This document shows positions 4,342 through 45,106 of a stretch of DNA of 45,106 bases, piece after piece. A program made the translations under genes and the position numbers. Where the stretch lies: the IMG/VR virus record IMGVR_UViG_2541047951_000008. One strand, 5' to 3'. Below the pieces are notes generated by a model. That model was not told where the DNA came from. It saw only the letters and a list, made by a program, of their open reading frames with translations, and did not search any database. How positions within the stretch are numbered: position 1 is the first letter of the stretch; each line of letters starts with the position of its first letter. Source of the stretch: a virus. Lineage: Duplodnaviria; Heunggongvirae; Uroviricota; Caudoviricetes.

Positions 4342-4629
4342 TTAACGGATAAACAGCCAGACCAGCAGACACGCCACTACCGGCACAGCAAAATCCATCA
4401 GGCTTGCCACATCCCACGCGCGCGGATCAAAACCGCCCCACCACGGCATATTCATACGCTTGCCATGCCCGAACATTTCAATCCAGCGATATTCTGCCTG
4501 GGTATGTTCACGCGCAATGAAGAACGTACAACCGGCTATCGCTCCGTAAGCCCAGTTTCCGGTAAAAAGACCAACCAGTATCTGCGCAGCCACAGCACAA
4601 AGTGCATGAAGTAAGGGGCTTATATCCAT
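4342..4629 (-). CDS. Small hydrophobic (membrane) protein, prophage accessory
   Basis: 95-aa ORF preceded on the minus strand by AGGAGG (gctgaaAGGAGGaaataATG); hydrophobic stretches at both ends; same strand and tight spacing with the upstream phage ORF. Confidence 0.55.
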   Translation of the reverse strand: MDISPLLHALCAVAAQILVGLFTGNWAYGAIAGCTFFIAREHTQAEYRWIEMFGHGKRMNMPWWGGFDPRAWDVASLMDFAVPVVACLLVWLFIR

Positions 4630-4641
4630 TATTTCCTCCTT

Positions 4642-4920
4642 TCAGCTCCATTCCCGAAGCGGTGTTTCCAGCTCCACGACATAATCAGAGAATACAGAAA
4701 CATCAAACAAGTCATCAAGAATGCGAATGTTGACAAAATAACCATCATTCCGGATACAGACAGGTTCTCCCTCTTCTGTTACCCCTGTTTCTGTGTAGGT
4801 GAAACCAATTTCATCAACTAACAGTTTATTCTGGAGGTCTTCATCTTCCGCCCAGCCAAGAGATGACAGGAAGGCCTTAAACTGCAGTTTGTCATGAAAC
4901 TTCAAAGTTAAATCTTTCAT
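4642..4920 (-). CDS. Hypothetical acidic protein downstream of the tail fibre gene
   Basis: 92-aa ORF whose start overlaps the tail fibre stop (4917-4920), suggesting co-translation; function not recognised. Confidence 0.5.
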   Translation of the reverse strand: MKDLTLKFHDKLQFKAFLSSLGWAEDEDLQNKLLVDEIGFTYTETGVTEEGEPVCIRNDGYFVNIRILDDLFDVSVFSDYVVELETPLREWS

Positions 4921-6980
4921 ACGACCTCTTTTAATTGCCTGTCATTTAATTCTTTATGCCATATGCGGAAATTGCGAATATGGCCAAACAGATGTCGTTC
5001 TCCAGTATTCGTCTGCCCTCCAAATCGGATATTTTTATCAGCGGTCACACCATTATATTCACAATAAACTTCATTAACCGCTTTACCATTTGTCACCACA
5101 TGAAAGTGACCATCAGCTTTTGCAATACATCCAAATGTGGTTTTCTCTGCAAATACATCTGTCGCTGCGCTATTAACATACGAGCCTGAAGGGTTTGACA
5201 GACTCATATATAACTTACCACTACCTCTGTTGACTGCTGCAATTGCTGATTGCCCGGTATTGGCTGCTGCTATATCCCACACGCGGGGTGCGGCGTTTGG
5301 TGCAATATCCCAGTTTTTATGAATCTCAAGTAAAAAAGTAAATGGTAACTTATAAAGATTATTTCTGGTGGGGATACTAACCAAATCACTGGCTCTTGTC
5401 GTTGCGCTGCCTCCTGAAATAATAAATGATGATACACACGGCCCATTCTCTACTTGTGGGGTGGCAAGATAAATATAGTCACCAGATACTGTTGCCCCAC
5501 CCTTCTCAGGAGAATACTGTATCTGAGAGCCTATTTTTAACTCACCATCAATTGCCTGAATCGTTGCCTCTGCAAAAATCCAGCCCGTGGTCTTATCCTT
5601 CCTGACTCGTGCCGTAATTCTGCCGGCAGCACCACCTGTCATATTAATTTCAAGCGTTTGCGTATCAATGTACGCATCGCCAAGAAAAGTTGTTGCACTT
5701 CCGTCATATTTATCAAACCGGATTCGCAACCTTACCTGCAGTTCTGTTTTAAAGCGACATGAGGTTGTCACGTATTTATTATCGCCTGAGACATCAACTG
5801 ACTTTGTTGCAGCAATTGATGCCATATTAATAGCCGAAGTTTGCCCAACCAGAGAATCGTTGCAGACAAACTTTCCATAAGTAAAACCAAAACTATCCCT
5901 CCCGGTTTCGGGCACATCCATGTTTGATGACTTCCCCCAGCTGGCTGGACTTTCCGAATTGAGCATGTAGTTCGTTCTTTGTCCCTCAATAAGCAGGCCA
6001 TCACACTCAAATCGCGGCTCATTAATTTCCGCCGTTTTCAGTTCGCCAGATTTGTTGATATATGTTGCCGTTGATGCGCGACTGAAATTAACCTGTTTAT
6101 CACTGGCGACCTGAACCACATCGTCACCAATAGCTATTTTTTTATAGCCCGGAGAAAAACCCGCAATCATATCCAGTGAATCGTTAAACGGTATCCACAC
6201 ATCAGGCAGCGGCGGCACTATATTCGCACAGGGCTCTGCAGTCACTTCCGCTGCGGCTTCTGCGCGGTCTGCCGCCTTTTCAGCTCGTGTCGCTGCCGAC
6301 AGAGCCTCATCCTTTTTCTGCCCGGCCTTTGTTGCGTCTGCTGCAGCCTCCCGCGCTTTTGTGGTGGCGACTCCGGCATTTTCAGCGGCTGACTCTGCAT
6401 TACGGCGGGAAGCCTCTTCACTGTCTGCGGAGGCTTCTTCTGACGCACGGGCATTTGTCTCTGAACGTTCTGCCGCTGTTGCTGCGTTTTGTGCGGCTGT
6501 TTTTGAAGAAGCTGCCGCTTTCGCGCTGTTACCTGCATTCGTCTCTGATGTTTTCGCCGCGTTCCTGGACGATGCCGCTGCTGTTTCTGATTTCTTTGCT
6601 GCCGCTGCGCTCTGAGAGGCGGCTTCAGCGTTGCGTGCCACATCCTCCACCATTTCCTGAAAACGGCGCAATGCCTCCGGCATGACATCATCTTCCGTCA
6701 TGGCACCGAGAAAATCATTCAGCGTCCCCGGACTGGAACCTTCATAGACGGTAATGGTCCCAACATGTGATGGCTGAGAACCCTCAATCCACAGGATGAC
6801 GCTGTACTGACCATACTCAACGTCCATACTGTAACGCCCGGCTTCATCAGGATTTTCAGAGGCCACCGTGTTCACCAGTACCGTGGTGCTGTTACGCTTT
6901 GCCTTCAGTTGAATAGTGCAGTTCTGTATTGGTTTTCCCGCACCATCTTTCAGCACACCTGAGATTTTTACTGCTGCCAT
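4917..6980 (-). CDS. Phage tail fibre protein with Ala-rich low-complexity central region
   Basis: N-terminus MAAVKISGVLKDGAGKPIQNCTIQLKA typical of E. coli lambdoid prophage tail fibres; located after lom; probable ATG at 6980 with GGAGTGG upstream (track ORF extends to 6986 with a GTG codon). Confidence 0.8.
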   Translation of the reverse strand: MAAVKISGVLKDGAGKPIQNCTIQLKAKRNSTTVLVNTVASENPDEAGRYSMDVEYGQYSVILWIEGSQPSHVGTITVYEGSSPGTLNDFLGAMTEDDVMPEALRRFQEMVEDVARNAEAASQSAAAAKKSETAAASSRNAAKTSETNAGNSAKAAASSKTAAQNAATAAERSETNARASEEASADSEEASRRNAESAAENAGVATTKAREAAADATKAGQKKDEALSAATRAEKAADRAEAAAEVTAEPCANIVPPLPDVWIPFNDSLDMIAGFSPGYKKIAIGDDVVQVASDKQVNFSRASTATYINKSGELKTAEINEPRFECDGLLIEGQRTNYMLNSESPASWGKSSNMDVPETGRDSFGFTYGKFVCNDSLVGQTSAINMASIAATKSVDVSGDNKYVTTSCRFKTELQVRLRIRFDKYDGSATTFLGDAYIDTQTLEINMTGGAAGRITARVRKDKTTGWIFAEATIQAIDGELKIGSQIQYSPEKGGATVSGDYIYLATPQVENGPCVSSFIISGGSATTRASDLVSIPTRNNLYKLPFTFLLEIHKNWDIAPNAAPRVWDIAAANTGQSAIAAVNRGSGKLYMSLSNPSGSYVNSAATDVFAEKTTFGCIAKADGHFHVVTNGKAVNEVYCEYNGVTADKNIRFGGQTNTGERHLFGHIRNFRIWHKELNDRQLKEVV

Positions 6981-6990
6981 ATCCACTCCA

Positions 6991-7018
6991 CAAAAAAGCC
7001 CGCCTGAACCGGCGGGCT
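6991..7018 (-). terminator. Rho-independent terminator between lom and tail fibre gene
   Basis: On minus strand AGCCCGCC-GGTTCA-GGCGGGCT hairpin followed by TTTTTTG. Confidence 0.5.
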
Positions 7019-7044
7019 GTCATAACACTGTGTTGCCTGGTTAA

Positions 7045-7644
7045 TCAGAATTTATAACCGACACCAACGATGAAACCGTCAGTGCGCCAGTCGCCACTGC
7101 CGGAACCTTCATAAGCAATATCAATGGCCACGGATTCGGTCGGGTTAAACTGCACGCCAGCCCCCCACGCCAGAGACGTGTCGCTGTAGCGACCGTCATC
7201 ACTTCCGGTCAGCACATCGTCCGTTTTCCCCTTGTTATCAGTTACGCGGAGATAATCCCCGGAGAAAGTCGACACACGGCTGTAAGCCACGCCCGCCATC
7301 GCATACGTGCTGAACCATTCATTCACGCGTACAGACGGCCCCGCCATCATGCTGAACCAGCGGTTACGCACGGAATCTTCATGCCAGCGGGTATCGCTGT
7401 AGTGCGTTTTTTGCTCATCCTCAGCATTGGCATAACTGAAGGACGTAATCAGCCCCAGCGCGTCCGTAAACTCATAACGGTATTTCACGTTAATCCCGTT
7501 CAGATTATCGCTGCCGGGAGCGTTCGTACGGGCATGAAGATACCCCGCGCTCAGTGTGGACTGATGTTCAGACGCCCATGCAGGCGCACCGGATACGGAC
7601 AGACAGATGGCTGCGGACAAAATGGCTGCACATAATTTACGCAT
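7045..7644 (-). CDS. lom: Lom-like outer membrane protein (Ail/Lom family beta-barrel)
   Basis: 199 aa with signal peptide MRKLCAAILSAAICLSVSGAPAWA, C-terminal ...GVGYKF typical of OMP beta-barrels; lambda-like position after J; GAGG RBS upstream. Confidence 0.85.
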   Translation of the reverse strand: MRKLCAAILSAAICLSVSGAPAWASEHQSTLSAGYLHARTNAPGSDNLNGINVKYRYEFTDALGLITSFSYANAEDEQKTHYSDTRWHEDSVRNRWFSMMAGPSVRVNEWFSTYAMAGVAYSRVSTFSGDYLRVTDNKGKTDDVLTGSDDGRYSDTSLAWGAGVQFNPTESVAIDIAYEGSGSGDWRTDGFIVGVGYKF

Positions 7645-7711: not shown

Positions 7712-10700
7712 TCAGCTAATCGTGATGCCTGCAGTGGCTTTCTTCATCACAACAACCAGCAAATCGCTGATACTTGCTGTGGGATACCAGCCATTTACCC
7801 ACCATGCTGATACAGAAAACTCCAGCGTCATGTCGCCGCGACCAGCAGGCATATCAATAACACCACTGTAAACCAGCGTATTATCCATCGCGGTACGGTT
7901 ATAAATTTCAGCACTGTTTTTCTTCACTATCAGGCGGCATGACGAATAAGTATCGCTGTTCTCCCGCTCATGTCTGGCACCGCTGAAAGCCACCGCCGGA
8001 ATAACAATCTGCCGGTTAAACGGCTGATCGTCATAAACCCTGACGGTAATGGTTCCTGATGGCCAACGCTTCGGTGCACGGGAGTCACGAGGGAAAGCCT
8101 TACCCACTGTTTTAACGAGATCGCCTTCAATCTGGTTTGCAGACAGTTTCCCTCTGATGACACAGTTCTCGTTAATGGTGACATTATTGAGCGTGCCGGT
8201 ATTCGCCGTGATGGCTCCACTGATATCCGCATTGCGGGCTGTCAGCCTGCCATCCGGCGTCAGGGAAAACGTCGGAGGATTGCCGGATGACGTGATGCTC
8301 ACCGCAAACAGTCGCTTCAGGAACACGTCGTTCATGAACAGCTGATTCCCCTGCGCCACAAACAGCGGCGTGGTGTTGCCGTTCTCCGGGGTAATCATCG
8401 CAATGCGATCGGCCTGCAGCAGAATGTTACTCAGGGTCTGACCATCAACATCCTCAATCCCCGCACCAATCCCGGCCACATAGGGAATACCGTTTTTTGT
8501 TTTCTGCACCTTCAGCATATACATGGCATTCAGCTCATTGCGCGTGTCTGACTGAACCCGCTGGATTTGCTGTATGGTCACGGCCTGGTCACCCAGCTTT
8601 TTATCCGTGGTCGAGGTAATTTCACTCCCTTTTTTATCCACGTACTGGCGGACCTGTGCTATCTGTCGGGCGTTTTCTGACTGCCCCTGGCTGACAGTCT
8701 GTGAGATTTCACTGCTCACCCGGTCCACTTTCTGGCTCACCTGCGCGATGGCCAGTGTCTGATCCTCATTCTTTTTCGCAACCAGCTGCGTGAGGCTGTT
8801 TTCCGCCTTCCCGATTTTCCGGGTCACTTCTGCGATATCCGTGTCCATCCGCTGACGGATATCTTCTTCCAGTTGCGTGACCTCCATACGCAGCGCTGAA
8901 GCATCAATGCGCTCTTTCAGTGCCTGACCCAGAAGCGTCTCATCTATCAGCCCCCGGAAAATTTCCAGATACCCTTCACCATCATTGCTGGGCTGCCCGC
9001 TGGCTTCCACAAAAGCAGATTTTCCCACCAGGTTGACGCTTCGCACGTAAAACCAGAAATCCGTCCCCGGCTTAATCCGGCTCCCCTGGACAGTCCACTG
9101 ACTGCCGGTCCCCAGATAACGGGCAGATTTTTCCACCTGTGCTGTGTTCGTGATGCGTTTTTCTGAGAACCAGAATTCAAACTGTACCGTCGGGTCATAC
9201 ACCGCAAGACGCGGGACCGCCGTTATCTGAAAATACCCCGGCGTCAGCTCAATGGTGGCGGGTTTTGCAGGTGCGTTAATCCGGAACGATACCGACGCCG
9301 GATCGCCCTGCTGTCCCCGGGCATTTACCGCCCGGACCGTCAGCGTGTAACGCCCCAGCGCCAGCTGCCTGAAGCGGTAAGTGGTTTCCGCCGTCCGGGC
9401 CGTGCTGACCAGCCGCTCACTGCCGTCATCCGCTGTTACGGTCAGACGGAGCAGGAAGCTCACGCCCTTCACCACCTTCGGCGTGTCCCAGCGCGCCAGC
9501 ACCTGATATTCCCCGCTGTCTGCGGTGACTTCGGCGGTCAGGTGCTGCACCGCTGGCGGCGTGACACCATTCACCGTGCCGCTCTGGTCGCCGTCAAAGT
9601 GCGCTCCGTTATCCACGATGGCCTCTTTTTCCGGCACATGCTGCACGGCGGTGATGGCATACGTGCCGTCGTCGTTCTCACGGATACTCACGCAGCGGAA
9701 CAGTCGCTGGCGCAGCGTCGGCAGCTTCAGCCCCCATACGCTGTATTCAGCAACACCGTCAGGAACACGGCTCACTTTTACCTTCACGCCGTCGGTGACG
9801 GACTGAACCTCCACGCTGACCGGATTGCCACTTCCGTCAACCAGGCTTATCAGCGTGGTACCGGAGGATGGCAGCGTGATTTCACGGTCGAGCGTCAGCG
9901 TCCGGGTCTGGCTGTTCACCGCCAGCACTCGCCCGCCGGTGCTGATACCGGCATAGTCATCATCGCAGATTTCAATGACATCGCCCGGTACATGGCGAAG
10001 CCCTTCAGCACCCACGCTGAAGTCCACGGTCTGCGTTTCCAGCAGCTCCGTTTTAATCAGCCACAGCCCGGCGCGGTGTGCCTGCCCCCGACTGGTACAG
10101 CCAAAGGCATCCATCTTCGTGACGTTACGACCGTAACGGAGAATGGCCTGCGTATCTTCAACAAGCTCTGTCGCCGTCTCCCAGCCGTTATCCGGGTCAA
10201 TCCAGTTCACCTCAACGGCATTATGGCGGTCCTTCAGGGCGCTGAAGCTGTAGCGGAACGGCGCGCCATCATCCGGCATCACCACATTACTGCGGTTATA
10301 GGTCCACACCTTATCCGACGGTCGGTCCTGCACGAACGTCAGCGTCTGCCCGTTCCATACCGGCATACAGCGCATCGCCGAACAGAAATCACTGAGCACA
10401 TCCCACGCCTTACGCTGTGTGGTCAGGTACGCATTACAGGTGATGCGCGGCTCCGTGCCACCAAAACCATCCGGCACCGACTGGTCGCAATACTGTCCGA
10501 TGACATACAGCGCCCATTTGTCCACATCCGCCGCACCAAGACGTTTCCCCATGCCGTAGCGCGGATGGGTCAGCATATCCCACAGACACCATGCCATGTT
10601 GTTGCTGTATGCCGGTTTAAACGTTCCGTCCCAGATACCGCTGTATTGCCGCCTCTGCGGGTTATAGTTCGACGGCACCTGCAGAATGCGCCCGCGAAGA

Positions 10701-28016: not shown

Positions 28017-28531
28017 CAGGCTAATGCGCTTTCCTGGTCACGACGAATAACTTGCCCATAGCAGTTATTTGAACGTATGCGGCAATCGCGCCCACCATCT
28101 TTTATCCACCAACGAATCGCCTCACATGCACCCTTACGATCACCGGCATTCAGCCGCTTATAAAACGTCGACGGGAAACACTTACCAGGGCCAATGTTAT
28201 AGGGACAGAATGACGCGATACCGGCTTTCTGTGGCTCGGTCAGTGGAACTTTTATATTGCGCTCCACCCATGCCAGCGCCTTATCCCGCTCAATGGCGTT
28301 AACCTGGGCGCATTTTTCCTTCGACAGTTTCATTCCCGGAATAACAGGTTTACCGTCCACCATCGTTGCTCCCCGACAGATGGTCCATATGCCGGAGCCA
28401 TCGCGGTATGCAGTGATGTGATTCCCCTCTTTTTCATCCAGAAACTGATCGAGAATGTCAGGCGCGGGCGCACCGACGGCAATCAGTGCCAGAACAGCAG
28501 CCGACAGGCTGTATCTGATTTTTACGTTCAT
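27998..28531 (-). CDS. SAR endolysin (GH24 lysozyme with N-terminal signal-anchor-release domain)
   Basis: N-terminal hydrophobic [13 protein letters not shown] followed by T4-lysozyme-like catalytic region E...D...T ([24 protein letters not shown]); paired with a pinholin upstream. Confidence 0.85.
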
Positions 28532-28594
28532 GGATATTTATCAGGATTTATCGGTTTCTGCCCACGGACAGGTTTATCTGTTCCGGTCAGTGAC

Positions 28595-28945
28595 TTAAGG
28601 TTGTGATTCCGGAGGAGTCTTCAGAGAACCAGTAATTCTTCCCGGTAGCTTTCCTTTGTAGGTTATCCATACATTCTGCGCCTCTAAAATTACGGGGCGC
28701 TTTTCCGGCGACTGCTCATCCCCTTCACATAACCCGGCAGCAACATCCAGGAAGACCTGTCTGATGCTCATTCTGGCTGCTGCCTCATAAAACTCCAGCG
28801 CGGCACCTTCAACACGGTCCAGCGAGATGTCCAGGTCAAAAATTTCACCGTCAAAGCGTTTTTTGTCCCGTAACGCTAAAGTTACCGTAACTTTATTCTC
28901 AAAATTGCGGATCCCTTTCACAATCAGTTCATAGTTTTGAGTCAT
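28595..28945 (-). CDS. Hypothetical 116-aa soluble protein inserted between holin and endolysin
   Basis: ORF on the late strand filling the holin-endolysin gap; no TM segment; function not recognised. Confidence 0.5.
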   Translation of the reverse strand: MTQNYELIVKGIRNFENKVTVTLALRDKKRFDGEIFDLDISLDRVEGAALEFYEAAARMSIRQVFLDVAAGLCEGDEQSPEKRPVILEAQNVWITYKGKLPGRITGSLKTPPESQP

Positions 28946-28949
28946 TGAA

Positions 28950-29165
28950 TTACTCTCCCCGTGCAGCCTTACGCTTGTCTTCTCTGATTTTGAAGTACAG
29001 ATTTGTCAGATAAGTCAGGAAGCCCAGAACCAGACTCCCCAGTACACCAATCGCAGCCCACTGTGACGGACTGACCTGATCAAGCCACTGTAAAAACCAG
29101 TAGCCAGCACTGCCTGCGGAGGTGCCATAGGCGACACCCGTTGTTAACTTATCCATGGATTTCAT
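28950..29165 (-). CDS. Class II pinholin (phage 21 S21-like) with dual-start motif
   Basis: [71 protein letters not shown] is near-identical to S21 pinholin; MKSM gives antiholin/holin dual starts; track ORF extends to 29228. Confidence 0.85.
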
Positions 29166-29232
29166 AACCCCACCTCGCAGATGCGGGTGCTGTGTAATGG
29201 AAATAAAAAGGCCACCTGACGTGGCCACCAGA

Positions 29233-30285
29233 TTATTTCCCCACCAGCTCGTTTATCTCTTTCACTGTCTGGTTAAACCGCTCTGACTCAAGCTCAACAC
29301 CTAAGGCCCGACGCCCCAGCGCCATTGCTGCTTTTATTGTGGAACCGGATCCCATAAAAAAATCAGCAACCAGATCACCAGGTCGACTACTGGCATTGAT
29401 TATTTGCCTGAGCATATCCGCCGGTTTCTCACACGGATGTTTACCCGGGTAGAACTGAACGGGTTTATGCATCCAGACATCGGTATAAGGCACGGAGACT
29501 GATACGGAGAAATAGCGCCGGAGAGATTTAAACTCATCCAGCAATTCAGAATATTTGCGATTCAGTGAATCATAAGATGCCACCAGCTGGTGGTGTGGTT
29601 GTTCCAGTTGTTGTTCCTGAAACTTCTCTGCCGCTATACGGGAAAACAGTGCCTGTAACTTCCGATAGTCAGCCTCATTCGGCAACTGCCACTGACTGGC
29701 ACCAAACCAGTGGGAAACCATATTTTTCTTACCTGTGGCTTCGGCAATTTGTTTTGCCGTTATACCCAGTTCGGCACGAGCATCCCTGAAATACGATATC
29801 AGCGGTGCCATTATGTGCTGTTTGAGTTCCCTTTCTTTTGCCGCATAGCCGTCACTTTTGCCGCGATATGGCCCCTGGTAATGTTCAGCAAACAGAACGC
29901 GCTCTGTGGCAGGAAAATATGCGCGCAGACTTTCTTTATTACACCCATTCCAACGTCCGGACGGCTTCGCCCAGATGATATGGTTAAGCACGTTGAAACG
30001 TTCACGCATCATGATCTCAATATCAGATGCCAGGCGATGCCCACAGAACAGGTAAAGGCTTCCGGCAGGTTTTAACACCCGCCAGAACTGGGCCAGACAG
30101 TGGTCCAGCCACTTAAGGTAATCTTCGTCCCCTTTCCACTGATTGTCCCAACCGTTGGGTTTCACCTTGAAGTACGGCGGATCGGTAACAATCAGGTCAA
30201 TGGAATCATCAGGCAGGGACTGAATAAAATGCAGGCAATCAGCGTTGATTAAATCAACACTGTTTATTTTTACAGTATTTTTCAT
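29233..30285 (-). CDS. DNA methyltransferase, beta-class N6-adenine/N4-cytosine type
   Basis: N-terminal motif [10 protein letters not shown] and C-terminal motif [10 protein letters not shown] (order IV...I = beta class, N6_N4_Mtase-like); located between Q and the lysis genes. Confidence 0.85.
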
Positions 30286-30435
30286 GGATCAGTAAGCGTA
30301 ACTCTGGTAGGCTCACTCTGCTTTTGCGCTAAAGCAGTGGGCCGTGGTTCGCTTGTGACCAGTAAGCATGAGCGAATGGCTGGCAGGTGCTACCAACACC
30401 CACCAGCCGCCCATTTTCACAGCAGGAAACCGCCA

Positions 30436-30663
30436 TTACTGGCAGCGTCTGAATTTATTCCCGTATCCGCCGTTATCCTTCGCCAGACCCGCCAGAACTA
30501 ACTGAGTCAGTATTAACTGGCACCGGGCTTCGCTTACTCCGGTAGTTCTCGTCATCATGCGTGGCGTTACCCACTTGTCAGCAGGTAAGAAATGAAGGAC
30601 TGCGGCGGCGGTTTCTGTCATATCTTGCTGTTTTAGCATGTCTTTTTCCCTTCTGGTTAACAT
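30436..30663 (-). CDS. Hypothetical 75-aa protein
   Basis: ORF on the late strand between Q region and MTase; no recognised domain. Confidence 0.35.
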   Translation of the reverse strand: MLTRREKDMLKQQDMTETAAAVLHFLPADKWVTPRMMTRTTGVSEARCQLILTQLVLAGLAKDNGGYGNKFRRCQ

Positions 30664-30909
30664 GACATACCAATAACTCTTGTCTAAAAAGCCAGCAAGA
30701 TAAAAGGTCAGTATTCACGACCACCAGCGTGTTTACTGTACTGCACCAAGTTTACAGGTACAAAAAAACCGCTCAGCGGCGGGTTTAAGTTGTGTGGCGA
30801 AGTAACCACTCTTAACAGCATATTTGATTTTTTACGATTGTAAACGGTTGATTATTCATCTCCAATAAAAATAATTGTGTAGGTATGCCCTTAACAATGG
30901 ATAAGAAAC

Positions 30910-31356
30910 ATGAATAAAATGACTGTACTATTACTTAGCGCAACTATCATTTCAGGTTGTACTTCTTCCGTACCATTGATAAAAAAAACTCAATCAGGAA
31001 AACCTGAGGGGGTTTATCAAAATACGACAAAAGATAAAGTCAAAGATGCCCTTGTGAATTACTGCAATAGTAGAGGGTTGATAATTTACAACGCTGATAA
31101 CAGCAGTGTTATATGTGGTAAAGAACTGGAAGGCGGGTCTGCTGTTTTTGGACAAATGTTAATCGGCAATGCCTATTCAACAACCCCGGTATCAAAAGTC
31201 AGATTTACTATCGCTCAAGTTAATAACGATACAAAAGTGTGGGCCGATATGTGGATGGAAACTCAAATGGCAATGGGGCAAGTACAACAAATGGCTATAA
31301 CAGACAACGCAAGCAAAAACACTATCCAACAACGTCTTGATGAATTAAAACCTTAA
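30910..31356 (+). CDS. Predicted lipoprotein (moron, opposite strand to late genes)
   Basis: Signal peptide with lipobox MNKMTVLLLSATIISGC; AT-rich; located between Q and the lysis cassette on the opposite strand. Confidence 0.65.
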   Translation: MNKMTVLLLSATIISGCTSSVPLIKKTQSGKPEGVYQNTTKDKVKDALVNYCNSRGLIIYNADNSSVICGKELEGGSAVFGQMLIGNAYSTTPVSKVRFTIAQVNNDTKVWADMWMETQMAMGQVQQMAITDNASKNTIQQRLDELKP

Positions 31357-31369
31357 GTAAATTAATTAA

Positions 31370-31399
31370 ATAAAATGGGGAGAATAAATCGACTCCCCA
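31370..31399 (-). terminator. Hairpin between convergent Q and lipoprotein genes
   Basis: TGGGGAG-10 nt loop-CTCCCCA; on the minus strand followed by ATTTTATTTAATT. Confidence 0.35.
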
Positions 31400-31440
31400 C
31401 ACATTAAACTGATTCAATTACCCCCTCAATAAGAGGTCTT

Positions 31441-31806
31441 CTAACGATCCATCTCTAGCTCAATTTCTAACATCATTAACATGCCATCAACTACACCTTC
31501 AGCCTTTTGCAATAAACGCCCAACCCAGCAATCAGAACGCCCATGTTTACGGGCAAGCGCCATAAACGTCATACCACCTACATAATAATCCACTAATAAA
31601 TCGTGCAAATCGCTGTTGTTCTTTTTCAGGCGAGCCATGCACCCACAAATGATCATCGCATCATCGTCACAACATTGCGGGCGGGATTTTACTTTTGAAG
31701 GGATTAGTCCTTTAAATCCTGCAGCAATAGACGACCAGGTGACATCCTCGTGATTATTTGCCACCCATGCCCCCCAACGTTCAAGAACCATTTGAATATC
31801 ACGCAT
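31441..31806 (-). CDS. Late gene antiterminator Q (phage 82 / QuuD-like family)
   Basis: [75 protein letters not shown] recognised as E. coli prophage Q antiterminator; track ORF starts 5 codons earlier. Confidence 0.85.
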
Positions 31807-31823
31807 CAACGTTCTCCACAAAA

Positions 31824-32819
31824 TCAGGCCAGCACGCCAATTGCCAGCGCACGATCGATAAAACGAAATATCAGCTCCAGCTGGGAGCCATACTTCTCTT
31901 CAAATGCCACGGTATCCGCATGCAGCTCGTCGTGATGCTTTCTGCACAAAGGCAACACAAAGAGGTCATGCGCTTTTGTACCCATTCCCCCCTGACCGTG
32001 GCCTATCAGGTGGTGGGGATCATCAGCAGGCTTTCCACAACATGCACACGGCTGTGTCTTAACCCAGCGTGTGTACTTTTCATTAACCCAGCGGCGACGT
32101 TTTGGGCGTAACATAAAAGACTCCGGCGACTCCGGATCCACTTTCAGCGCCAGCACCTTTTTCGCCTTATCCTGGATGATGCTGGTGGCAGGAACCGAAG
32201 GCACAAGGTCACTTTCCCGGGTGACAGACGGCACAACAGGCTTCGGTAATCTCAGTGCCTTACGGGCTGCACTTTCCGGTAAGGCATCCGCCAGGTCATT
32301 ACGAATCAGCCACCAGCACAGTTCCGGCATTGTCACAACGTGACTGTCATCAAAACCGAGATCCCGACGCACAACAGACAACACCCAGCGGGCACAGTTA
32401 TCCGTTGCCATTGATTCCAGCCGTTCCGTGAACTGATCGCGCAGCTGGTTATCGCAGTGCCAGCACAGACGGATTGCGCCCGGCGCGTGTCGCATTGTTG
32501 TCATGTTCTCGCTGTGCCAGTCGGAATGAGGCCACTGGCAGCCTTTTTCACGAAGTAACCAGCTTTCAAGACATTCCACGCCACCAGCACGACGGATCAC
32601 TTCCTCATTGCGGAACACGGCCCGAACGGCAGGATCATCCGCCAGCGGTTGTGATGCCGCCGGAACGGCACCACTGGCGAAAGATGAATAACGTTCCGGC
32701 TCAGGCTCCAGCAGGACACGCCCCTGCATAAACAGGGGCATCAGCTCTGAACCTGGCCTGAACAATACGATCCCCATACGCGGGGCAATTTCAGGGGTCA
32801 GTAGTGCTCTCACGGTCAC
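31824..32819 (-). CDS. Nin-region protein (YdfU/DUF968-like) with C-terminal Cys/His-rich motif
   Basis: 331 aa immediately upstream of Q; CWHCDNQL and [21 protein letters not shown]...CRKHHDELH suggest a zinc-binding/HNH-like element; start is probably GTG coupled to the upstream stop. Confidence 0.4.
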
Positions 32820-32820
32820 C

Positions 32821-33630
32821 TCAATGAACGGTATCGAGCAGCTTTAACAGCTCAGGGAATCGGGATTCGAAGAAATGCGGCTGCGTCTCGCGCGGATTTG
32901 CGGGACTGGTGATGTTCTTGCCGAACATGCAACCTTTCGCTGTCAGCGACCAGAATTTTTTGATGTTGTTAATCGCGGTACGGCTGTATCGTTCGCGTTG
33001 TTCAACGATCCCCAGCTTCGCCATCTGGTGATATGCCTGATTAGCCGTAAGGCGGATACCATACTGTTTCAGCAGTGCACTCAGCGACAGCGTAGGACGA
33101 CTTGAGCCATCAGGCGCGTCAGCAGGAGCATCAATGGCATAGCGCGGTGCCAGATTCGGTAAGCCAACAGCCTCCTGGAGTTTCTGACAGGCACCAAGCA
33201 CTGAAGAGTTAGACAGGTTTAATTCCCGGCGCATAAAGTCCAGCAGAATCACACCAGCCTGCATCTTGTCAGCAGCCTGTCCGGATAATTTTTCCGGTGC
33301 GCTGGTTACCATGTCGAAAGTACGGATCACCTTCAGATGGAATGACGGGCTGATCCACATTGCATAGGCATACACCAGTTCCTTGCAGACATACGTTCCC
33401 CGTTCATTTCCCCCATGAATCACACTCACCGGGTCAACACCCAAATTCTGGGTGTTGGTCAATTCATGAACAAGCTCAACAGTTTGTTGGCTGGAAAGAA
33501 ACTTTCCTGGCTCCTTGGTTCTGGCATTTGCACCAGATGCTACTGCTGCGCGATGCAGATCGTTCAGGCTGTAACGCCCATAAGCATCACGACGAACTTC
33601 AATACCATCAATGACCATCAGATTATTCAT
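32821..33630 (-). CDS. KilA-N domain protein (antirepressor-like)
   Basis: N-terminal RYSLNDLHRAA...GTYVCKELVYAYAMWISPSFHLKVIRTF is characteristic of the KilA-N domain. Confidence 0.7.
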   Translation of the reverse strand: MNNLMVIDGIEVRRDAYGRYSLNDLHRAAVASGANARTKEPGKFLSSQQTVELVHELTNTQNLGVDPVSVIHGGNERGTYVCKELVYAYAMWISPSFHLKVIRTFDMVTSAPEKLSGQAADKMQAGVILLDFMRRELNLSNSSVLGACQKLQEAVGLPNLAPRYAIDAPADAPDGSSRPTLSLSALLKQYGIRLTANQAYHQMAKLGIVEQRERYSRTAINNIKKFWSLTAKGCMFGKNITSPANPRETQPHFFESRFPELLKLLDTVH

Positions 33631-40988: not shown

Positions 40989-41207
40989 GTGGAGAAACAT
41001 ATGCTGAACCTCGATTGCGTTCCAATCTCAACTTATTGCAAAGAAACTGGCGAAACTCCTGAAGCAATAAACAAACGTGTACAGCGCGGTGTTTGGCGTG
41101 AAGGTGTTCAGGTTTTAAAGGTTGAAGGCGTTAAGGAGAGGTGGATTGATCTTAGTGAGGTTGCAAAATGGGCCAGACAAAACTGCTCAAACTACCGCGC
41201 GGCGTAA
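40989..41207 (+). CDS. Excisionase-like small DNA-binding protein
   Basis: 72-aa basic protein directly upstream of and overlapping int; assignment mainly by position and size. Confidence 0.45.
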   Translation: MEKHMLNLDCVPISTYCKETGETPEAINKRVQRGVWREGVQVLKVEGVKERWIDLSEVAKWARQNCSNYRAA

Positions 41208-42334
41208 CAATCAGGAAACACCGCCAGGGCGAAACGATCAATATAACTTTCACCTACAAAGGAGTTAAATGTCGTGAGCCTCTTTCCAATCTGGAAGTAA
41301 CACCAAAGAACATTAAATACGCCGAGCGCACACTCGGCGAAATTCATAATAAGATCGAAAGGGGAACATTCATTTATGCGGAATATTTTCCCCGTTCTGC
41401 TCGTTTGAAAATTTTTGGTAATGCTGCTGCAGGCAAAACGGTAAAAATGTACCTGGACGAATACCTTGAAATCTGCGAAACGAGAAAACTTTCACCCTCT
41501 ACGATTGGTGGTTATAAAAAATGCCGTAGTGCGTTAGCCTCACTCCACATTTGCCCTGCAAGTGAATTAACACCAGCAATCCTGAAAGCGTGGATTCAAA
41601 GCCAGAAAACGACCTTAAAAACAATTCGCAACCAGTTATCTTTCCTGCGGTCAGCACTTGATGAAGCCGTAACCGATGGGGTACTTCAAATTAACCCCGT
41701 ATCGTTGGTAACTGCTTCGCGCTACCAAAGTGATAAGTCAGAAGCAGAAAGCAGCTACGTGGTTGATCCGCTATCACCAGCAGAAGTTGATGCATTACTA
41801 ACAGCAGCCGGAAACAAACAATGGGAGAATCTGTTCCGGTTCGCTATACATACAGGCCTGCGTAGTTCTGAATTATGTGCCCTTCGATGGCGTGATATCG
41901 ACTTTGTTGGAAAAACTGCCCATGTCCAGAGCGCAAGTGTTGTCGGTGTTATCAAAGGAACAAAGACAAAAGCCGGTACTCGTAAAGTTGAACTGACAGA
42001 AGATGCAATGTTGGCGCTGATAAATCAGAAGCCATTTACATTCATGAAGGATGCTACTGTCTTTGAAGATCCAAAGACCAATAAGCCCTGGGCAAGTGCT
42101 GATGCAATCAGGAAAAAAGCATGGGTGCCAACATTGCGAAAAGCAGGTATTCGTTACAGAAATCCATATCAAACCAGGCATACATTCGCCACCCGCCATA
42201 TCAGCCGGGGAGCAAACCTGTTTTGGCTTGCAGCTCAAATGGGGCATAAAGGGCCGGAGATGCTTTTCAGGCACTATGGCTCATATCTGAAGGAATATGA
42301 TGGACAAACAAGCTTGAAGAAGATAACAATATAA
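41168..42334 (+). CDS. int: Tyrosine site-specific integrase
   Basis: 388 aa with N-terminal arm-binding-like region and C-terminal catalytic motifs (HTGLRSSELCALRWRDID ... RHTFATRHISRGANLFWLAAQMGH ... FRHYGSYL with catalytic Tyr). Confidence 0.9.
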   Translation: MGQTKLLKLPRGVTIRKHRQGETINITFTYKGVKCREPLSNLEVTPKNIKYAERTLGEIHNKIERGTFIYAEYFPRSARLKIFGNAAAGKTVKMYLDEYLEICETRKLSPSTIGGYKKCRSALASLHICPASELTPAILKAWIQSQKTTLKTIRNQLSFLRSALDEAVTDGVLQINPVSLVTASRYQSDKSEAESSYVVDPLSPAEVDALLTAAGNKQWENLFRFAIHTGLRSSELCALRWRDIDFVGKTAHVQSASVVGVIKGTKTKAGTRKVELTEDAMLALINQKPFTFMKDATVFEDPKTNKPWASADAIRKKAWVPTLRKAGIRYRNPYQTRHTFATRHISRGANLFWLAAQMGHKGPEMLFRHYGSYLKEYDGQTSLKKITI

Positions 42335-42351
42335 TCCAAGCATGAAACTAT

Positions 42352-42375
42352 TGGCCACAATTTGTGGCCATTTTA
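42352..42375 (+). terminator. Hairpin plus T-run immediately after int
   Basis: TGGCCAC-AATTT-GTGGCCA followed by TTTTA; lies inside the 5-prime extension of the track ORF for the next gene, arguing that gene starts at 42393. Confidence 0.4.
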
Positions 42376-42392
42376 CGGAGCAAGATAGAAAC

Positions 42393-44126
42393 ATGGCAAA
42401 TCAAATTACCAAACTAAAAAATATAAATGTTGTGAAGTTTCGCGGACTGAAAAATATAAACATCGAGTTTGGTTCTCGCCTAACTGTTATTTGTGGTAAA
42501 AATGGCACATCTAAATCCACAATTCTTGGCATTATCGCCCAAATATTTAGCTTTACAAAGGACTTTACCAAAAACCCTGAGACTGATTTAACACAATATA
42601 AAACATTAACAAATGGCAGCTTCAAGTCAGCTTTCAGCGAACATTTTAGGCTTTCAGAACAATTTGATGTTCCTGGTTCAATGGACGTCAAAATTAGTGT
42701 CTATGATGGTGCATCGAACAAACATCTTGAAAAACTAACATTAGGTTTATACAGCTACAGTGACAGAGATAAATCTAGGCCTGTAGTCAGGGGAAATGAT
42801 TCAATACCGGAAAAAAACCAAAGTAGAAACGTTACTCATCCTGTTATTTTTTTAAGCTTAGCACGACTTCTTCCTATTACATTAAGGACTGATTACTCAA
42901 CACGGGATGTTCAGTACATCAATGAAAATTCTGATGAAATCAGAATGATGAGTAACCAACTCTTACTAAAAAACAATGGAAGCTCAGTAACAGCAACAAA
43001 AGGTACTATCGATTCAATGGTTGTCCATGGTGACAATTATGATCACCAATCAGTATCTGTTGGTGAAGATAATGTTGGACAATTAATCCAGGCAATTTTT
43101 TCATTTAAAAGATTGAAGGAAACTTATTCTGATTATCATGGCGGAATATTGTTAATTGATGAAGCCGATGCAGGTCTTTTCCCTGCGGCACAGTTAGAGC
43201 TAATTAATATTCTAACTAAAGCAGCAAAACAATACGATCTGCAAATAATCATGACCTCGCACTCTCCATTAATAATAGAGGATATCTATAATCGTTCAAA
43301 ACAAGATAGTGATAGCTTTAAAACAATATATCTTACAGACACATATGGAGATATTAAAACAAAGAATAATCTTTCATGGACAGATATCCACGCTGATTTA
43401 CATGTTGAAACTGTAAAAATTAATGATGACATTTGTCTTCCAAAGGCAAATGTATATTTTGAAGACAAAGAAGGTTTCGACTTTTTCAAACAATTGATAA
43501 CAGATCGAAAAATAAATAAAATATTAAATCCATTAGGAAATATAAATATTAGCTGCTCTGCCATGCTTGACTTAATGGCAAGAAAAATACCAGAATTTAC
43601 AGCTAAAAGCTTGATCGTCTTAGACGGTGATGTTGTTCACGACAACAGTGCTAATGCAAAAAAAGCCAAAAAAGAAAAAAACTTATGTTTGCTTCCAAGC
43701 ACCTTACCTCCAGACCAAATGATTTTTGAGTTTTTATATAATTTACCACCTGATGATGCATATTGGGAAAATAAAAATAAATTTACAAAAGCTGTTTTTA
43801 TGAAAACAGCTAAAGACATAATTGCAACGCTAAAGATTGGTAACGCTCCGATTGATTTAAAAATCCTTATAGATAATTATAAAAAAGTTAACAAAAACCA
43901 TGGAGGGAGAGTTAGAAAACTGTTTAAAGATTTTGCACATACGACTCAATTTCAGGCCCAAGTCAAAGGAAGAGTTAAAGATAACCCATATCGATATTGG
44001 GTCGAGAAAAATCCTGTTCAATCGGATAGCTTCAAGAATGAACTAATAAAGAGTCTTAAAGTTATTATGATAAGTGGACATGGTGTCGATTCTGCTACCA
44101 TCTCATCATATCTGTCAGATAACTAA
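42393..44126 (+). CDS. OLD-family / GajA-like protein: N-terminal ABC ATPase with C-terminal Toprim-like domain; AT-rich cargo
   Basis: Walker A GKNGTSKST, Walker B ILLIDEADAGLFP, H-loop IIMTSHSPLI; C-terminal region with conserved Glu (VYFEDKEGFDF) and DxD (IVLDGDVV) as in Toprim domains of OLD/GajA nucleases; start taken at MANQITKLKNI. Confidence 0.7.
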   Translation: MANQITKLKNINVVKFRGLKNINIEFGSRLTVICGKNGTSKSTILGIIAQIFSFTKDFTKNPETDLTQYKTLTNGSFKSAFSEHFRLSEQFDVPGSMDVKISVYDGASNKHLEKLTLGLYSYSDRDKSRPVVRGNDSIPEKNQSRNVTHPVIFLSLARLLPITLRTDYSTRDVQYINENSDEIRMMSNQLLLKNNGSSVTATKGTIDSMVVHGDNYDHQSVSVGEDNVGQLIQAIFSFKRLKETYSDYHGGILLIDEADAGLFPAAQLELINILTKAAKQYDLQIIMTSHSPLIIEDIYNRSKQDSDSFKTIYLTDTYGDIKTKNNLSWTDIHADLHVETVKINDDICLPKANVYFEDKEGFDFFKQLITDRKINKILNPLGNINISCSAMLDLMARKIPEFTAKSLIVLDGDVVHDNSANAKKAKKEKNLCLLPSTLPPDQMIFEFLYNLPPDDAYWENKNKFTKAVFMKTAKDIIATLKIGNAPIDLKILIDNYKKVNKNHGGRVRKLFKDFAHTTQFQAQVKGRVKDNPYRYWVEKNPVQSDSFKNELIKSLKVIMISGHGVDSATISSYLSDN

Positions 44127-44206: not shown

Positions 44207-45106
44207 ATGCGTTTTAACACCCCACTTCGCTATCCTGGCGGTAAAGGCAAGCTTGCAAATTTCATGCTTCGGATTATTGAAGAAAATAATCTTTCGCCTA
44301 TACATTATGCCGAACCATATGCTGGGGGTGCTGGTTTAGCATTGAAACTGTTACATCTAAATGCAGCTGAAAAAATCATCCTTAATGATATTAATATTTC
44401 TGTTTATGCTTTTTGGCACAGTGTATTAAATCATGCAGATCAATTATGTTCTTTAATTGAAAGAACAGAAGTTACAATGGATGAATGGTTTAGGCAGAAA
44501 GATATAATTAATAATCCTAAAGACCATGATCTTTTAACAATTGGTTTCTCAACCTTTTTTCTCAATAGAACAAATCGTTCTGGAATATTAAAAGGTGGAG
44601 TAATTGGCGGTAAAAATCAAGAAGGGAAATGGAAGCTTGACGCTCGCTATAATAAGAGTGATTTGATTTCTCGAATCCATAAAATATCAGAAAATCGTCA
44701 CAGAATAGATTTATATAACATGGATGCAATTGATTTCATTAAAAAAATAGTTACTCAATTGCCACAAAACTCATTAACATATTTGGATCCACCTTATTAC
44801 ATAAAAGGTAAAGGTTTATATATCAACCATTATGATCATGATGATCATGTTAGGGTTGCAAAAGTCGTACAGAATAATATTAAAACACCTTGGATTGTTT
44901 CTTACGATAACACTCCTGAGATCCAAGCTATGTATAAGACATCATCATTAGTATATGGAATAAACTACAGTGCTCAAGATCGGTACAAAGGATCTGAGGT
45001 AATGTTCTTCAGTGAACGATTGAAAATCTTTAAAACAGATGATCCAACTAAGGTAAAAGCGCCTGTATTTAAAAGAGGATGTGTTGACGACCACATCCAG
45101 ACATAA
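44207..45106 (+). CDS. Dam-family (D12 / alpha-class) N6-adenine DNA methyltransferase
   Basis: N-terminal RYPGGKGK and motif I EPYAGGAG, C-terminal motif IV YLDPPYY (order I...IV as in Dam/T4 Dam); GAGG RBS; AT-rich; ORF ends at the window edge. Confidence 0.85.
   Translation: MRFNTPLRYPGGKGKLANFMLRIIEENNLSPIHYAEPYAGGAGLALKLLHLNAAEKIILNDINISVYAFWHSVLNHADQLCSLIERTEVTMDEWFRQKDIINNPKDHDLLTIGFSTFFLNRTNRSGILKGGVIGGKNQEGKWKLDARYNKSDLISRIHKISENRHRIDLYNMDAIDFIKKIVTQLPQNSLTYLDPPYYIKGKGLYINHYDHDDHVRVAKVVQNNIKTPWIVSYDNTPEIQAMYKTSSLVYGINYSAQDRYKGSEVMFFSERLKIFKTDDPTKVKAPVFKRGCVDDHIQT

Follow-up and report, generated by a model that had tools for sequence, protein, structure and literature searches.

An opposite-strand lipoprotein gene between antiterminator Q and its probable late promoter in an Escherichia coli lambdoid prophage

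What is a lipoprotein gene doing on the opposite strand between the antiterminator gene Q and the lysis genes of a lambdoid (lambda-like) prophage, and how can it be expressed from such a position? The question is raised by a DNA of 45,106 nucleotides (IMG/VR record IMGVR_UViG_2541047951_000008), which is an Escherichia coli prophage of this kind that carries its late genes on the minus strand; "the window" denotes this whole stretch. A sequence-only reading of positions 30,436 to 31,440 had reported three things in this interval: an AT-rich lipoprotein gene on the strand opposite to Q and the lysis genes, a lipobox ISGC in its product, and a 75-amino-acid (aa) open reading frame (ORF) with a methyltransferase gene on the late strand. 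All three stand, the gene at 30910-31356 (+) in a block of 36% guanine plus cytosine (GC), the lipobox with its cysteine at position 17, and the two late-strand genes at 30436-30663 (-) and 29233-30285 (-). The account favoured here, with a probability of roughly 0.6, is that the lipoprotein gene is a self-contained moron situated between Q and the late promoter on which Q acts, and that superinfection exclusion is its most likely role.

The argument depends on the following features.

31441-31821, minus strand: antiterminator Q, 126 aa, of the Q21/Q933W family and QuuD-like; the final delayed-early gene
about 31376-31399, minus strand: hairpin in the Q direction, resembling an intrinsic terminator, between Q and the lipoprotein gene
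30846-31440: cargo (moron) block, about 595 bp, 36% GC
30910-31356, plus strand: lipoprotein ORF, encoding a 148-aa precursor
30664-30909: intergenic stretch of 246 bp between the lipoprotein gene and the 75-aa ORF
30848-30875, plus strand: candidate sigma-70 promoter of the lipoprotein gene, TTGATT-16-AATAAT, found by consensus scan only
30844-30817, minus strand: candidate late promoter pR', TTTACA-16-TATGCT, found by scan and by conservation
about 30780-30761, minus strand: candidate terminator tR', a short G+C hairpin followed by T7

The lipoprotein ORF is a genuine gene and not a chance ORF, since searching 1.84 billion cluster representatives with a profile recovers 853 relatives at E<=1e-3 (413 of them at E<=1e-10), the AlphaFold2 model is a confident alpha+beta structure (pLDDT 85.7), and the surrounding 1.6 kb (30300-31900) is covered to at least 80% in 181 of 5426 complete E. 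coli genomes. Many chromosomes of the species contain this region at 100% identity. The precursor starts with MNKMTVLLLSATIISGC, in which K3 precedes an h-region without charged residue and the residues I-I-S-G-C. The PROSITE rule PS51257 asks for a lipobox [LIVMFWSTAG]2-[LIVMFYSTAGCQ]-[AGS]-C with the cysteine at positions 15-35, six uncharged residues before it, and a lysine or arginine among the first seven residues. The N-terminus agrees with every clause of this rule, as do those of 53 out of 59 diverse relatives, and Cys17 (codon 30958-30960) is the sole invariant column in the alignment of the 59 sequences. The predicted signal peptide comprises residues 1-16, and the mature protein has 132 aa and an isoelectric point of 8.5. 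Its residue +2 is threonine, and aspartate occurs at +2 in no member of the family alignment; by the sorting rule of E. coli, which looks at this position, the protein would be anchored in the outer membrane and face the periplasm. Two further cysteines, Cys52 and Cys69, are conserved in at least 90% of the alignment, which fits a periplasmic disulfide.

The gene is also foreign, swappable cargo, that is, a moron, because sister phages hold other genes at the same place and its composition departs from that of the prophage. The cargo block 30846-31440 has a GC content of 0.363 vs 0.517 for the prophage, and at third codon positions the lipoprotein gene reaches 0.315 vs 0.43-0.67 in its neighbours. 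On the right the block ends at the stop codon of Q, and on the left within about 25 bp upstream of the -35 hexamer of pR'; correspondingly, homology to the quuD-type phages ends at 31447 and resumes at 30845.

Linkage was followed in 80 IMG/VR loci, each with a close relative of this Q. The lipoprotein gene lies on the opposite strand in all 37 loci in which Q is at least 98% identical and enough downstream sequence is present, at a distance from Q of 87-92 bp with a single exception of 1898 bp. In this exceptional locus (L054, about 4380-6280) some 1.8 kb, possibly an insertion sequence, is inserted between Q and the lipoprotein gene, and the remaining module is intact. By comparison, the lipoprotein is missing from all 41 loci whose Q allele is 94-97% identical. 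In sister Q alleles the slot contains other opposite-strand genes: a HEC-04-like AAA ATPase (L059, 1177-2628 (-), PADLOC E 4e-47), or, in loci of the L063 type (4549-7308), a Blc lipocalin lipoprotein (PF08212) together with a 2-thiouracil-desulfurase/DUF1722 gene and an AraC regulator, and further cargo intervals are found in L005 (1190-2287) and L007 (1076-2173). In DLP12, mEp332 and PhiR29_1 the slot is occupied by a porin gene. PhiR29_1 has the same DUF968, KilA-N, RusA and LexA-like backbone as the window, with the porin in the place of the lipoprotein. To judge by these loci, the segment between Q and pR' behaves as a cargo hotspot.

The antiterminator itself matches PF06530 (E 2.1e-51) and, over residues 13-94, the solved Q21 structures 6p18 and 6jnx (E 7.5e-9); the assignment of Q families to Pfam entries follows bioRxiv 10.1101/651190. 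Its gene is about 82% identical in nucleotides to quuD of the defective K-12 prophage DLP12, and about 82-91% across DLP12, mEp332 and PhiR29_1. The Q proteins of the sister alleles are nearly invariant except for their last 25 residues or so (31441-31520 in the window), and these residues co-vary with the type of cargo and with the spacer of pR' (30823-30838). This pattern suggests a recombination junction inside Q and a Q C-terminus that co-varies with its DNA site. From the same co-variation we infer that the 3' end of Q, the cargo and pR' would move as one block.

Where, then, does late transcription begin? The sequence-only reading had left the location of the late promoter unclear, and the point is now largely settled in favour of 30844-30761, distal to the cargo. 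It is very probable, from conservation and scan together, that this segment is the pR'-tR' unit of this Q and that the cargo lies between Q and its own promoter. On the minus strand of the 246-bp intergenic stretch, the scan places the hairpin and T7 of tR' about 35 nt past a promoter-like site. Positions 30763-30845 are about 85% identical to the porin-to-holin segment of DLP12, mEp332 and PhiR29_1, and in these three the QuuD-type Q is followed by the opposite-strand porin gene and only then by the pR' unit. In the loci L058 and L059, which represent further Q alleles, the unit is likewise distal to other cargo. Among the lipoprotein-bearing loci it is present in all 35 that extend far enough, some 510 bp past the lipoprotein gene and about 597 bp after Q, and beyond it the content differs: the 75-aa ORF and methyltransferase, a diverged ORF, or the holin directly. 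Phages with a Q of 250 aa (ydfT/Q: SfV, Ayreon, mEp460), a Q of a different type by its annotation, match the window only from 30785 downward, that is, in tR' and beyond. The equivalent of tR' is annotated as a terminator in the records of SfV and Ayreon and is conserved in DLP12-type phages. It is the conservation of the unit distal to differing cargo, together with the lack of a promoter-like site just after Q, on which the location of pR' is based.

Another arrangement would be that of lambda, in which pR' closely follows Q. The hairpin at 31376-31399 would then be the true tR', polymerase modified by Q would silence the lipoprotein gene during lytic growth by antisense transcription, and 30844-30761 would be a second and unrelated element. 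The sequence-only reading had noted a hairpin between the convergent Q and lipoprotein genes, and it is indeed there, is the most stable of the interval and is oriented in the direction of Q. Its folding energy is -13.4 kcal/mol on the minus strand (z -3.25) and -11.2 kcal/mol on the plus strand (z -3.72), and none of 200 shuffled sequences is equally stable. However, only 42 bp separate the stop codon of Q from the hairpin, and a scan of the 84 bp from Q to the lipoprotein stop, the Q-to-hairpin stretch included, detects no promoter-like site. Moreover, the unit 30763-30845 is conserved in every DLP12-type relative and always on the far side of the cargo, while the sequence directly after Q is not conserved between cargo types. 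A lambda-like late promoter is therefore very improbable here. As for the hairpin, its T-rich tail is found on the minus strand only, so that as a terminator it faces the transcripts of Q and not the lipoprotein mRNA.

With pR' placed distal to the cargo, its start would lie near 30810, and we infer a leader of about 48 nt that ends at tR' unless Q is loaded. A small hairpin, GUGGU..GCCAC (30792-30808 (-)), opens the predicted leader; in the DLP12-type copies a C-to-U change keeps the pairing as G.U, which supports this hairpin weakly. A search of 28500-33000 against Rfam at E<=1 yields no RNA family, the short leader thus being without match. A sigma-dependent pause element is not identifiable at the unit. 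The spacer bases CGTAAA..AAT are kept across alleles and provide a candidate, and only a candidate, for the site of Q binding. Literature searches on mapped late promoters of DLP12 brought nothing usable.

The L063-type loci seem to be organised differently. The pR' unit is not found in them within 5 mismatches. Directly before the holin (L063, 7330-7400) there is a different pair of promoter-like and terminator-like sequences, and in this type the same N-terminal body of Q may go with a late promoter of another kind.

The position of pR' has a direct bearing on the likeness to Stx (Shiga toxin) phages. Their toxin genes are also situated in the Q-to-lysis interval, and Stx2c phages match 30300-30785 of the window, a segment with tR' and the 75-aa ORF, at about 99%. 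The Stx genes are downstream of pR' on the late strand and under its control (PMC6266700). Consequently, the sequence-only reading was right to invoke the Stx slot for the 75-aa ORF and the methyltransferase, which are in a Stx-like position, and not for the lipoprotein gene, which is upstream of pR' and on the other strand. In contrast to the Q-dependent Stx genes, it would be Q-independent. Judged from the gene order, it is outside the late transcript and in the position of nmpC of DLP12. The resemblance to the porin loci of DLP12 (nmpC), mEp332 and PhiR29_1 is close, as all have the same QuuD-type Q, then an opposite-strand slot for an envelope protein, then pR'-tR'. The lc gene of phage PA-2 is a further porin counterpart to nmpC. 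The differences are in content: the DLP12-type slot of about 1.65 kb encodes a 16-strand porin, and that of the window, about 0.6 kb, a lipoprotein of 148 aa. Furthermore, the window adds the 67/75-aa ORF and the methyltransferase between tR' and the holin, whereas the DLP12 type proceeds to the holin.

How would such a module work? The slot would correspond to the gap from the end of the delayed-early operon to the start of the late operon. Late transcription would begin past the cargo, so that no antisense transcription runs through the lipoprotein gene, and this late start beyond the cargo would explain the tolerance of the slot for genes on the opposite strand. The hairpin in the Q direction would shield the cargo from early read-through lacking antitermination. 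The lipoprotein gene would be read from its own candidate promoter at 30848-30875, independently of Q, and could hence be expressed in the lysogen. Q would act in trans at pR', some 600 bp away, and let RNA polymerase pass tR'. Finally, the mature lipoprotein would alter the envelope and thereby stop incoming phages, either at adsorption or during tape-measure-mediated delivery of their DNA.

The candidate promoter of the lipoprotein gene is back to back with pR', their -35 hexamers being 3 bp apart, and it is without conservation across the other genomic contexts of the gene. Two ideas about its origin were discarded. A promoter that moves together with the lipoprotein gene is rejected, as the upstream 90 bp from 12 contexts fail to align. 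A resident divergent promoter common to all cargo types is unsupported, the similarity upstream of the -35 hexamer of pR' fading within about 25 bp.

What the protein does has to be approached through its relatives. It matches a single PHROG, phrog_3152 (E 1.3e-104), which is labelled as of unknown function. Searches in Pfam, NCBIfam and PADLOC return no family match; profile and single-sequence searches of PDB sequences give matches to signal peptides alone, and the comparison of the model with the viral structures of BFVD nothing at E<=1e-3. Literature searches on this lipoprotein brought nothing usable. The lipoprotein is a new member of the phage-borne envelope lipoproteins, belonging to a large family without Pfam entry. 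In structural comparisons the model comes closest to generic helix-grip or KA1-like domains, with the N-domain of BamC at a Foldseek E-value of 1.7e-3, and it also resembles the Francisella lipoprotein Flpp3 (DUF3568). All these matches are only 6-10% identical, a fold-level resemblance by which a function is not established. Some distant relatives bear C-terminal PDZ, BamD-like TPR or SHOCT domains, and in Stenotrophomonas a form of 317 aa is present in a conserved synteny that does not look phage-derived. The distribution of these forms makes it probable that the domain is an old cellular envelope module borrowed by phages.

The genomic contexts of closer relatives (40-72% identity) were inspected in Salmonella, Jejubacter, Citrobacter, Enterobacter, Morganella, Proteus, Photorhabdus, Xenorhabdus and Haemophilus. 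In about 14 of about 18 gamma-proteobacterial contexts the gene is inside the tail-tip module of siphovirus prophages. Some nine homologues directly follow the tape-measure gene, and others are found between gpK and gpJ or just past gpJ; among the other contexts are a P1-like element and a nin region. The Citrobacter copy, located in a tail operon, has its own promoter-like site, TTGATT-17-TATTAT, placed like the candidate in the window, and a strong terminator.

The sequence-only reading had suggested a factor of lysogenic conversion or superinfection exclusion, and either is plausible. By analogy with known systems, these contexts lead us to favour, tentatively, a role in superinfection exclusion at the envelope, perhaps directed at tape-measure-mediated entry. 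The reason is that the homologues adjoin tape-measure and tail-tip genes in the way that HK97 gp15 and HK022 cor do. That one sister allele of the slot (L059) is a defence-type ATPase was also counted for exclusion. The gene cor of HK022 is just downstream of the J-like tail gene, a placement that recalls the homologues of the window protein next to tail-tip genes. Cor, in HK022, phi80 and N15, is a receptor-blocking lipoprotein, as is Llp of T5, the llp gene being beside the receptor-binding gene. Unlike these, the window protein shows no sequence similarity to Cor (BLASTP E 28 with HK022 Cor), is about twice as long and is without linkage to a type of J. The second model is gp15 of HK97, a moron located by the tape-measure gene, expressed from the prophage and causing a tail-dependent block of genome injection (PMC3594210). 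About nine homologues of the window protein share this location directly after the tape-measure gene; gp15, however, a small member of the YebO family, sits in the inner membrane and is no lipoprotein, and the gene in the window is not by the tape-measure gene.

Several points weigh against the account as a whole. On the side of transcription, pR', the lipoprotein promoter and tR' are consensus matches backed by conservation, and the hairpin of tR' is weak (fold z -1.26). The binding element of Q21 consists of TGAGCA direct repeats (PMC6606751), and the pR' spacer ATCGTAAAAAATCAAA contains no TGAGCA, leaving no recognisable Q-binding element; a different binding site is nevertheless to be expected, since this Q is only distantly related to Q21. 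The hairpin 3' of the lipoprotein gene lacks a U-tract in the direction of that gene, for which a terminator of its own is therefore not supported. On the side of function, comparisons with Cor and Bor by BLASTP and searches in PADLOC and PHROGs disclose no sequence similarity to known exclusion or conversion lipoproteins. The distant relatives (the Stenotrophomonas 317-aa forms and the PDZ and TPR fusions) are not obviously phage-borne, so that the main role of the domain may be a cellular one. Finally, PhiR49_2 has the same J C-terminus (98%) yet no lipoprotein gene, and lipoproteins that are 70-72% identical occur with unrelated J C-termini. These last two findings led to the rejection of one specific form of exclusion, a receptor-specific blocker tied to the receptor-binding domain of J.

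Could the gene serve the host instead of excluding other phages? It might be a conversion factor for fitness or virulence, similar to lambda Bor, an outer-membrane lipoprotein that confers serum resistance, or to Lom, and its expression from the prophage would favour the bacterium in gut or bloodstream. The placement follows a bor-like logic, with a small prophage lipoprotein gene opposite to and beside the late or lysis region; other alleles of the slot are envelope proteins without obvious anti-phage role (a porin, the Blc lipocalin); the module is present in human, poultry and cattle isolates; and the fold is akin to lipid- or ligand-binding helix-grip domains and to Flpp3 of Francisella. 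Against this, bor of lambda sits after Rz and not between Q and pR', and homology is undetectable, no similarity to Bor/Iss emerging in Pfam (no hit to PF06291 at E<=0.01) or with lambda Bor in BLASTP (E 0.29). More importantly, homologues repeatedly adjoin tape-measure and tail-tip genes in many genera, which a factor for the niche of the host does not predict. On balance, we consider such a conversion role unlikely.

Somewhat less likely still is a service to the lytic cycle of the phage itself, through sparing progeny from debris or from infected cells, through passage of the envelope or through tail function. T5 Llp, for instance, keeps progeny from debris or already infected cells. In most other prophages the gene is co-oriented within the late tail operon, by the tape-measure gene, gpM or gpK-gpJ, and would be expressed late. 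The copy in the window, on the other hand, precedes pR', runs on the opposite strand and cannot join the late transcript; the Citrobacter copy, with its promoter-like site and terminator, points in the same direction, and PhiR49_2, which has the same type of J, does without the lipoprotein.

Two other possibilities were considered. With its BamC-like fold the protein might target the BAM complex or an outer-membrane-protein receptor, and this is a weaker possibility than exclusion at the stage of DNA delivery. In addition, a distant homologue (P0049, 42% identity; L017, 2974-3432) is encoded within a few kb of a VasI gene of type VI secretion (8128-8432). As this is a single case, the idea of an immunity function against type VI secretion is too thin, and the proximity may be coincidence.

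If exclusion is the role, it could be imagined that the protein is the first recognised member of a widespread new family of Gram-negative exclusion lipoproteins, acting in the periplasm against tape-measure-mediated genome delivery. This extension is rather doubtful at present. It would explain why the gene directly follows the tape-measure gene in many genera, and such a family would be, by analogy, the Gram-negative counterpart of the Ltp lipoproteins of Gram-positive hosts and of HK97 gp15.

As a prophage moron of known architecture the feature is routine and overturns nothing. Its value is in a candidate exclusion family and in a rule by which pR' can be located when the Q of a phage is of the QuuD type. 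In such phages Q and the late promoter can be hundreds to thousands of bases apart and enclose a slot for exchangeable cargo on the opposite strand, and whether a passenger is inserted before or after pR' decides between expression in the lysogen and expression on induction only, a distinction that matters for toxins and defence genes. The repeated placement of the family by tape-measure and tail-tip genes marks it out as a concrete candidate for a new mechanism that acts against phages at the envelope.

The remaining genes of the neighbourhood are these.

31824-32819: DUF968/HNH gene, adjoining Q on the side opposite to the lipoprotein gene
30436-30663, minus strand: 75-aa ORF, the first late-strand ORF past tR'; phrog_331 (E 3.1e-26), with orf47 of SfV as counterpart
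29233-30285, minus strand: N6/N4 DNA methyltransferase; PF01555 (E 2.2e-42), PADLOC MTase_II (E 3.3e-152)
beyond the methyltransferase, late strand: P21-type holin, DUF1327 protein, lysozyme and Rz/Rz1

Read along the late strand, the order is thus Q, hairpin, opposite-strand cargo, pR', tR', 67/75-aa ORF, methyltransferase and lysis genes. RefSeq begins the 75-aa ORF at the ATG at 30639, which gives 67 aa, and the Shine-Dalgarno sequence fits this start; the shorter form is, on these grounds, the more likely one. The ORF is about 99% identical in mEp460, cdtI and Stx2c phages and has a weak match (E 0.049) to the winged-helix end of SoFic, a Fic-type protein.

The gene order with the lipoprotein supports a full lytic cycle, since PhiR40_1 and PhiR55_1, which carry the module at 99.9% identity, are used as plaque-forming phages in bioRxiv 10.1101/2025.11.03.685801.

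Elsewhere in the window, other genes have the appearance of cargo. An ORF of 680 aa with 34% GC (1953-3995 (+)), flanked by the smpB/ssrA side and by the tail-fibre end of the prophage, has no match in Pfam or PADLOC and looks like another foreign cargo gene. At the integrase edge, just past the integrase gene (41168-42334), an AAA_15/AAA_21 ATPase is encoded (42342-44126 (+)), the matches of which resemble PtuA, AriA and GajA. It is followed by a gene similar to D12-class methyltransferases (44207-45106 (+), running past the end of the window; PADLOC PD-Lambda-5_B, E 2e-124). From these matches, the two look like an anti-phage pair of the PD-Lambda-5 type at the edge of the prophage.

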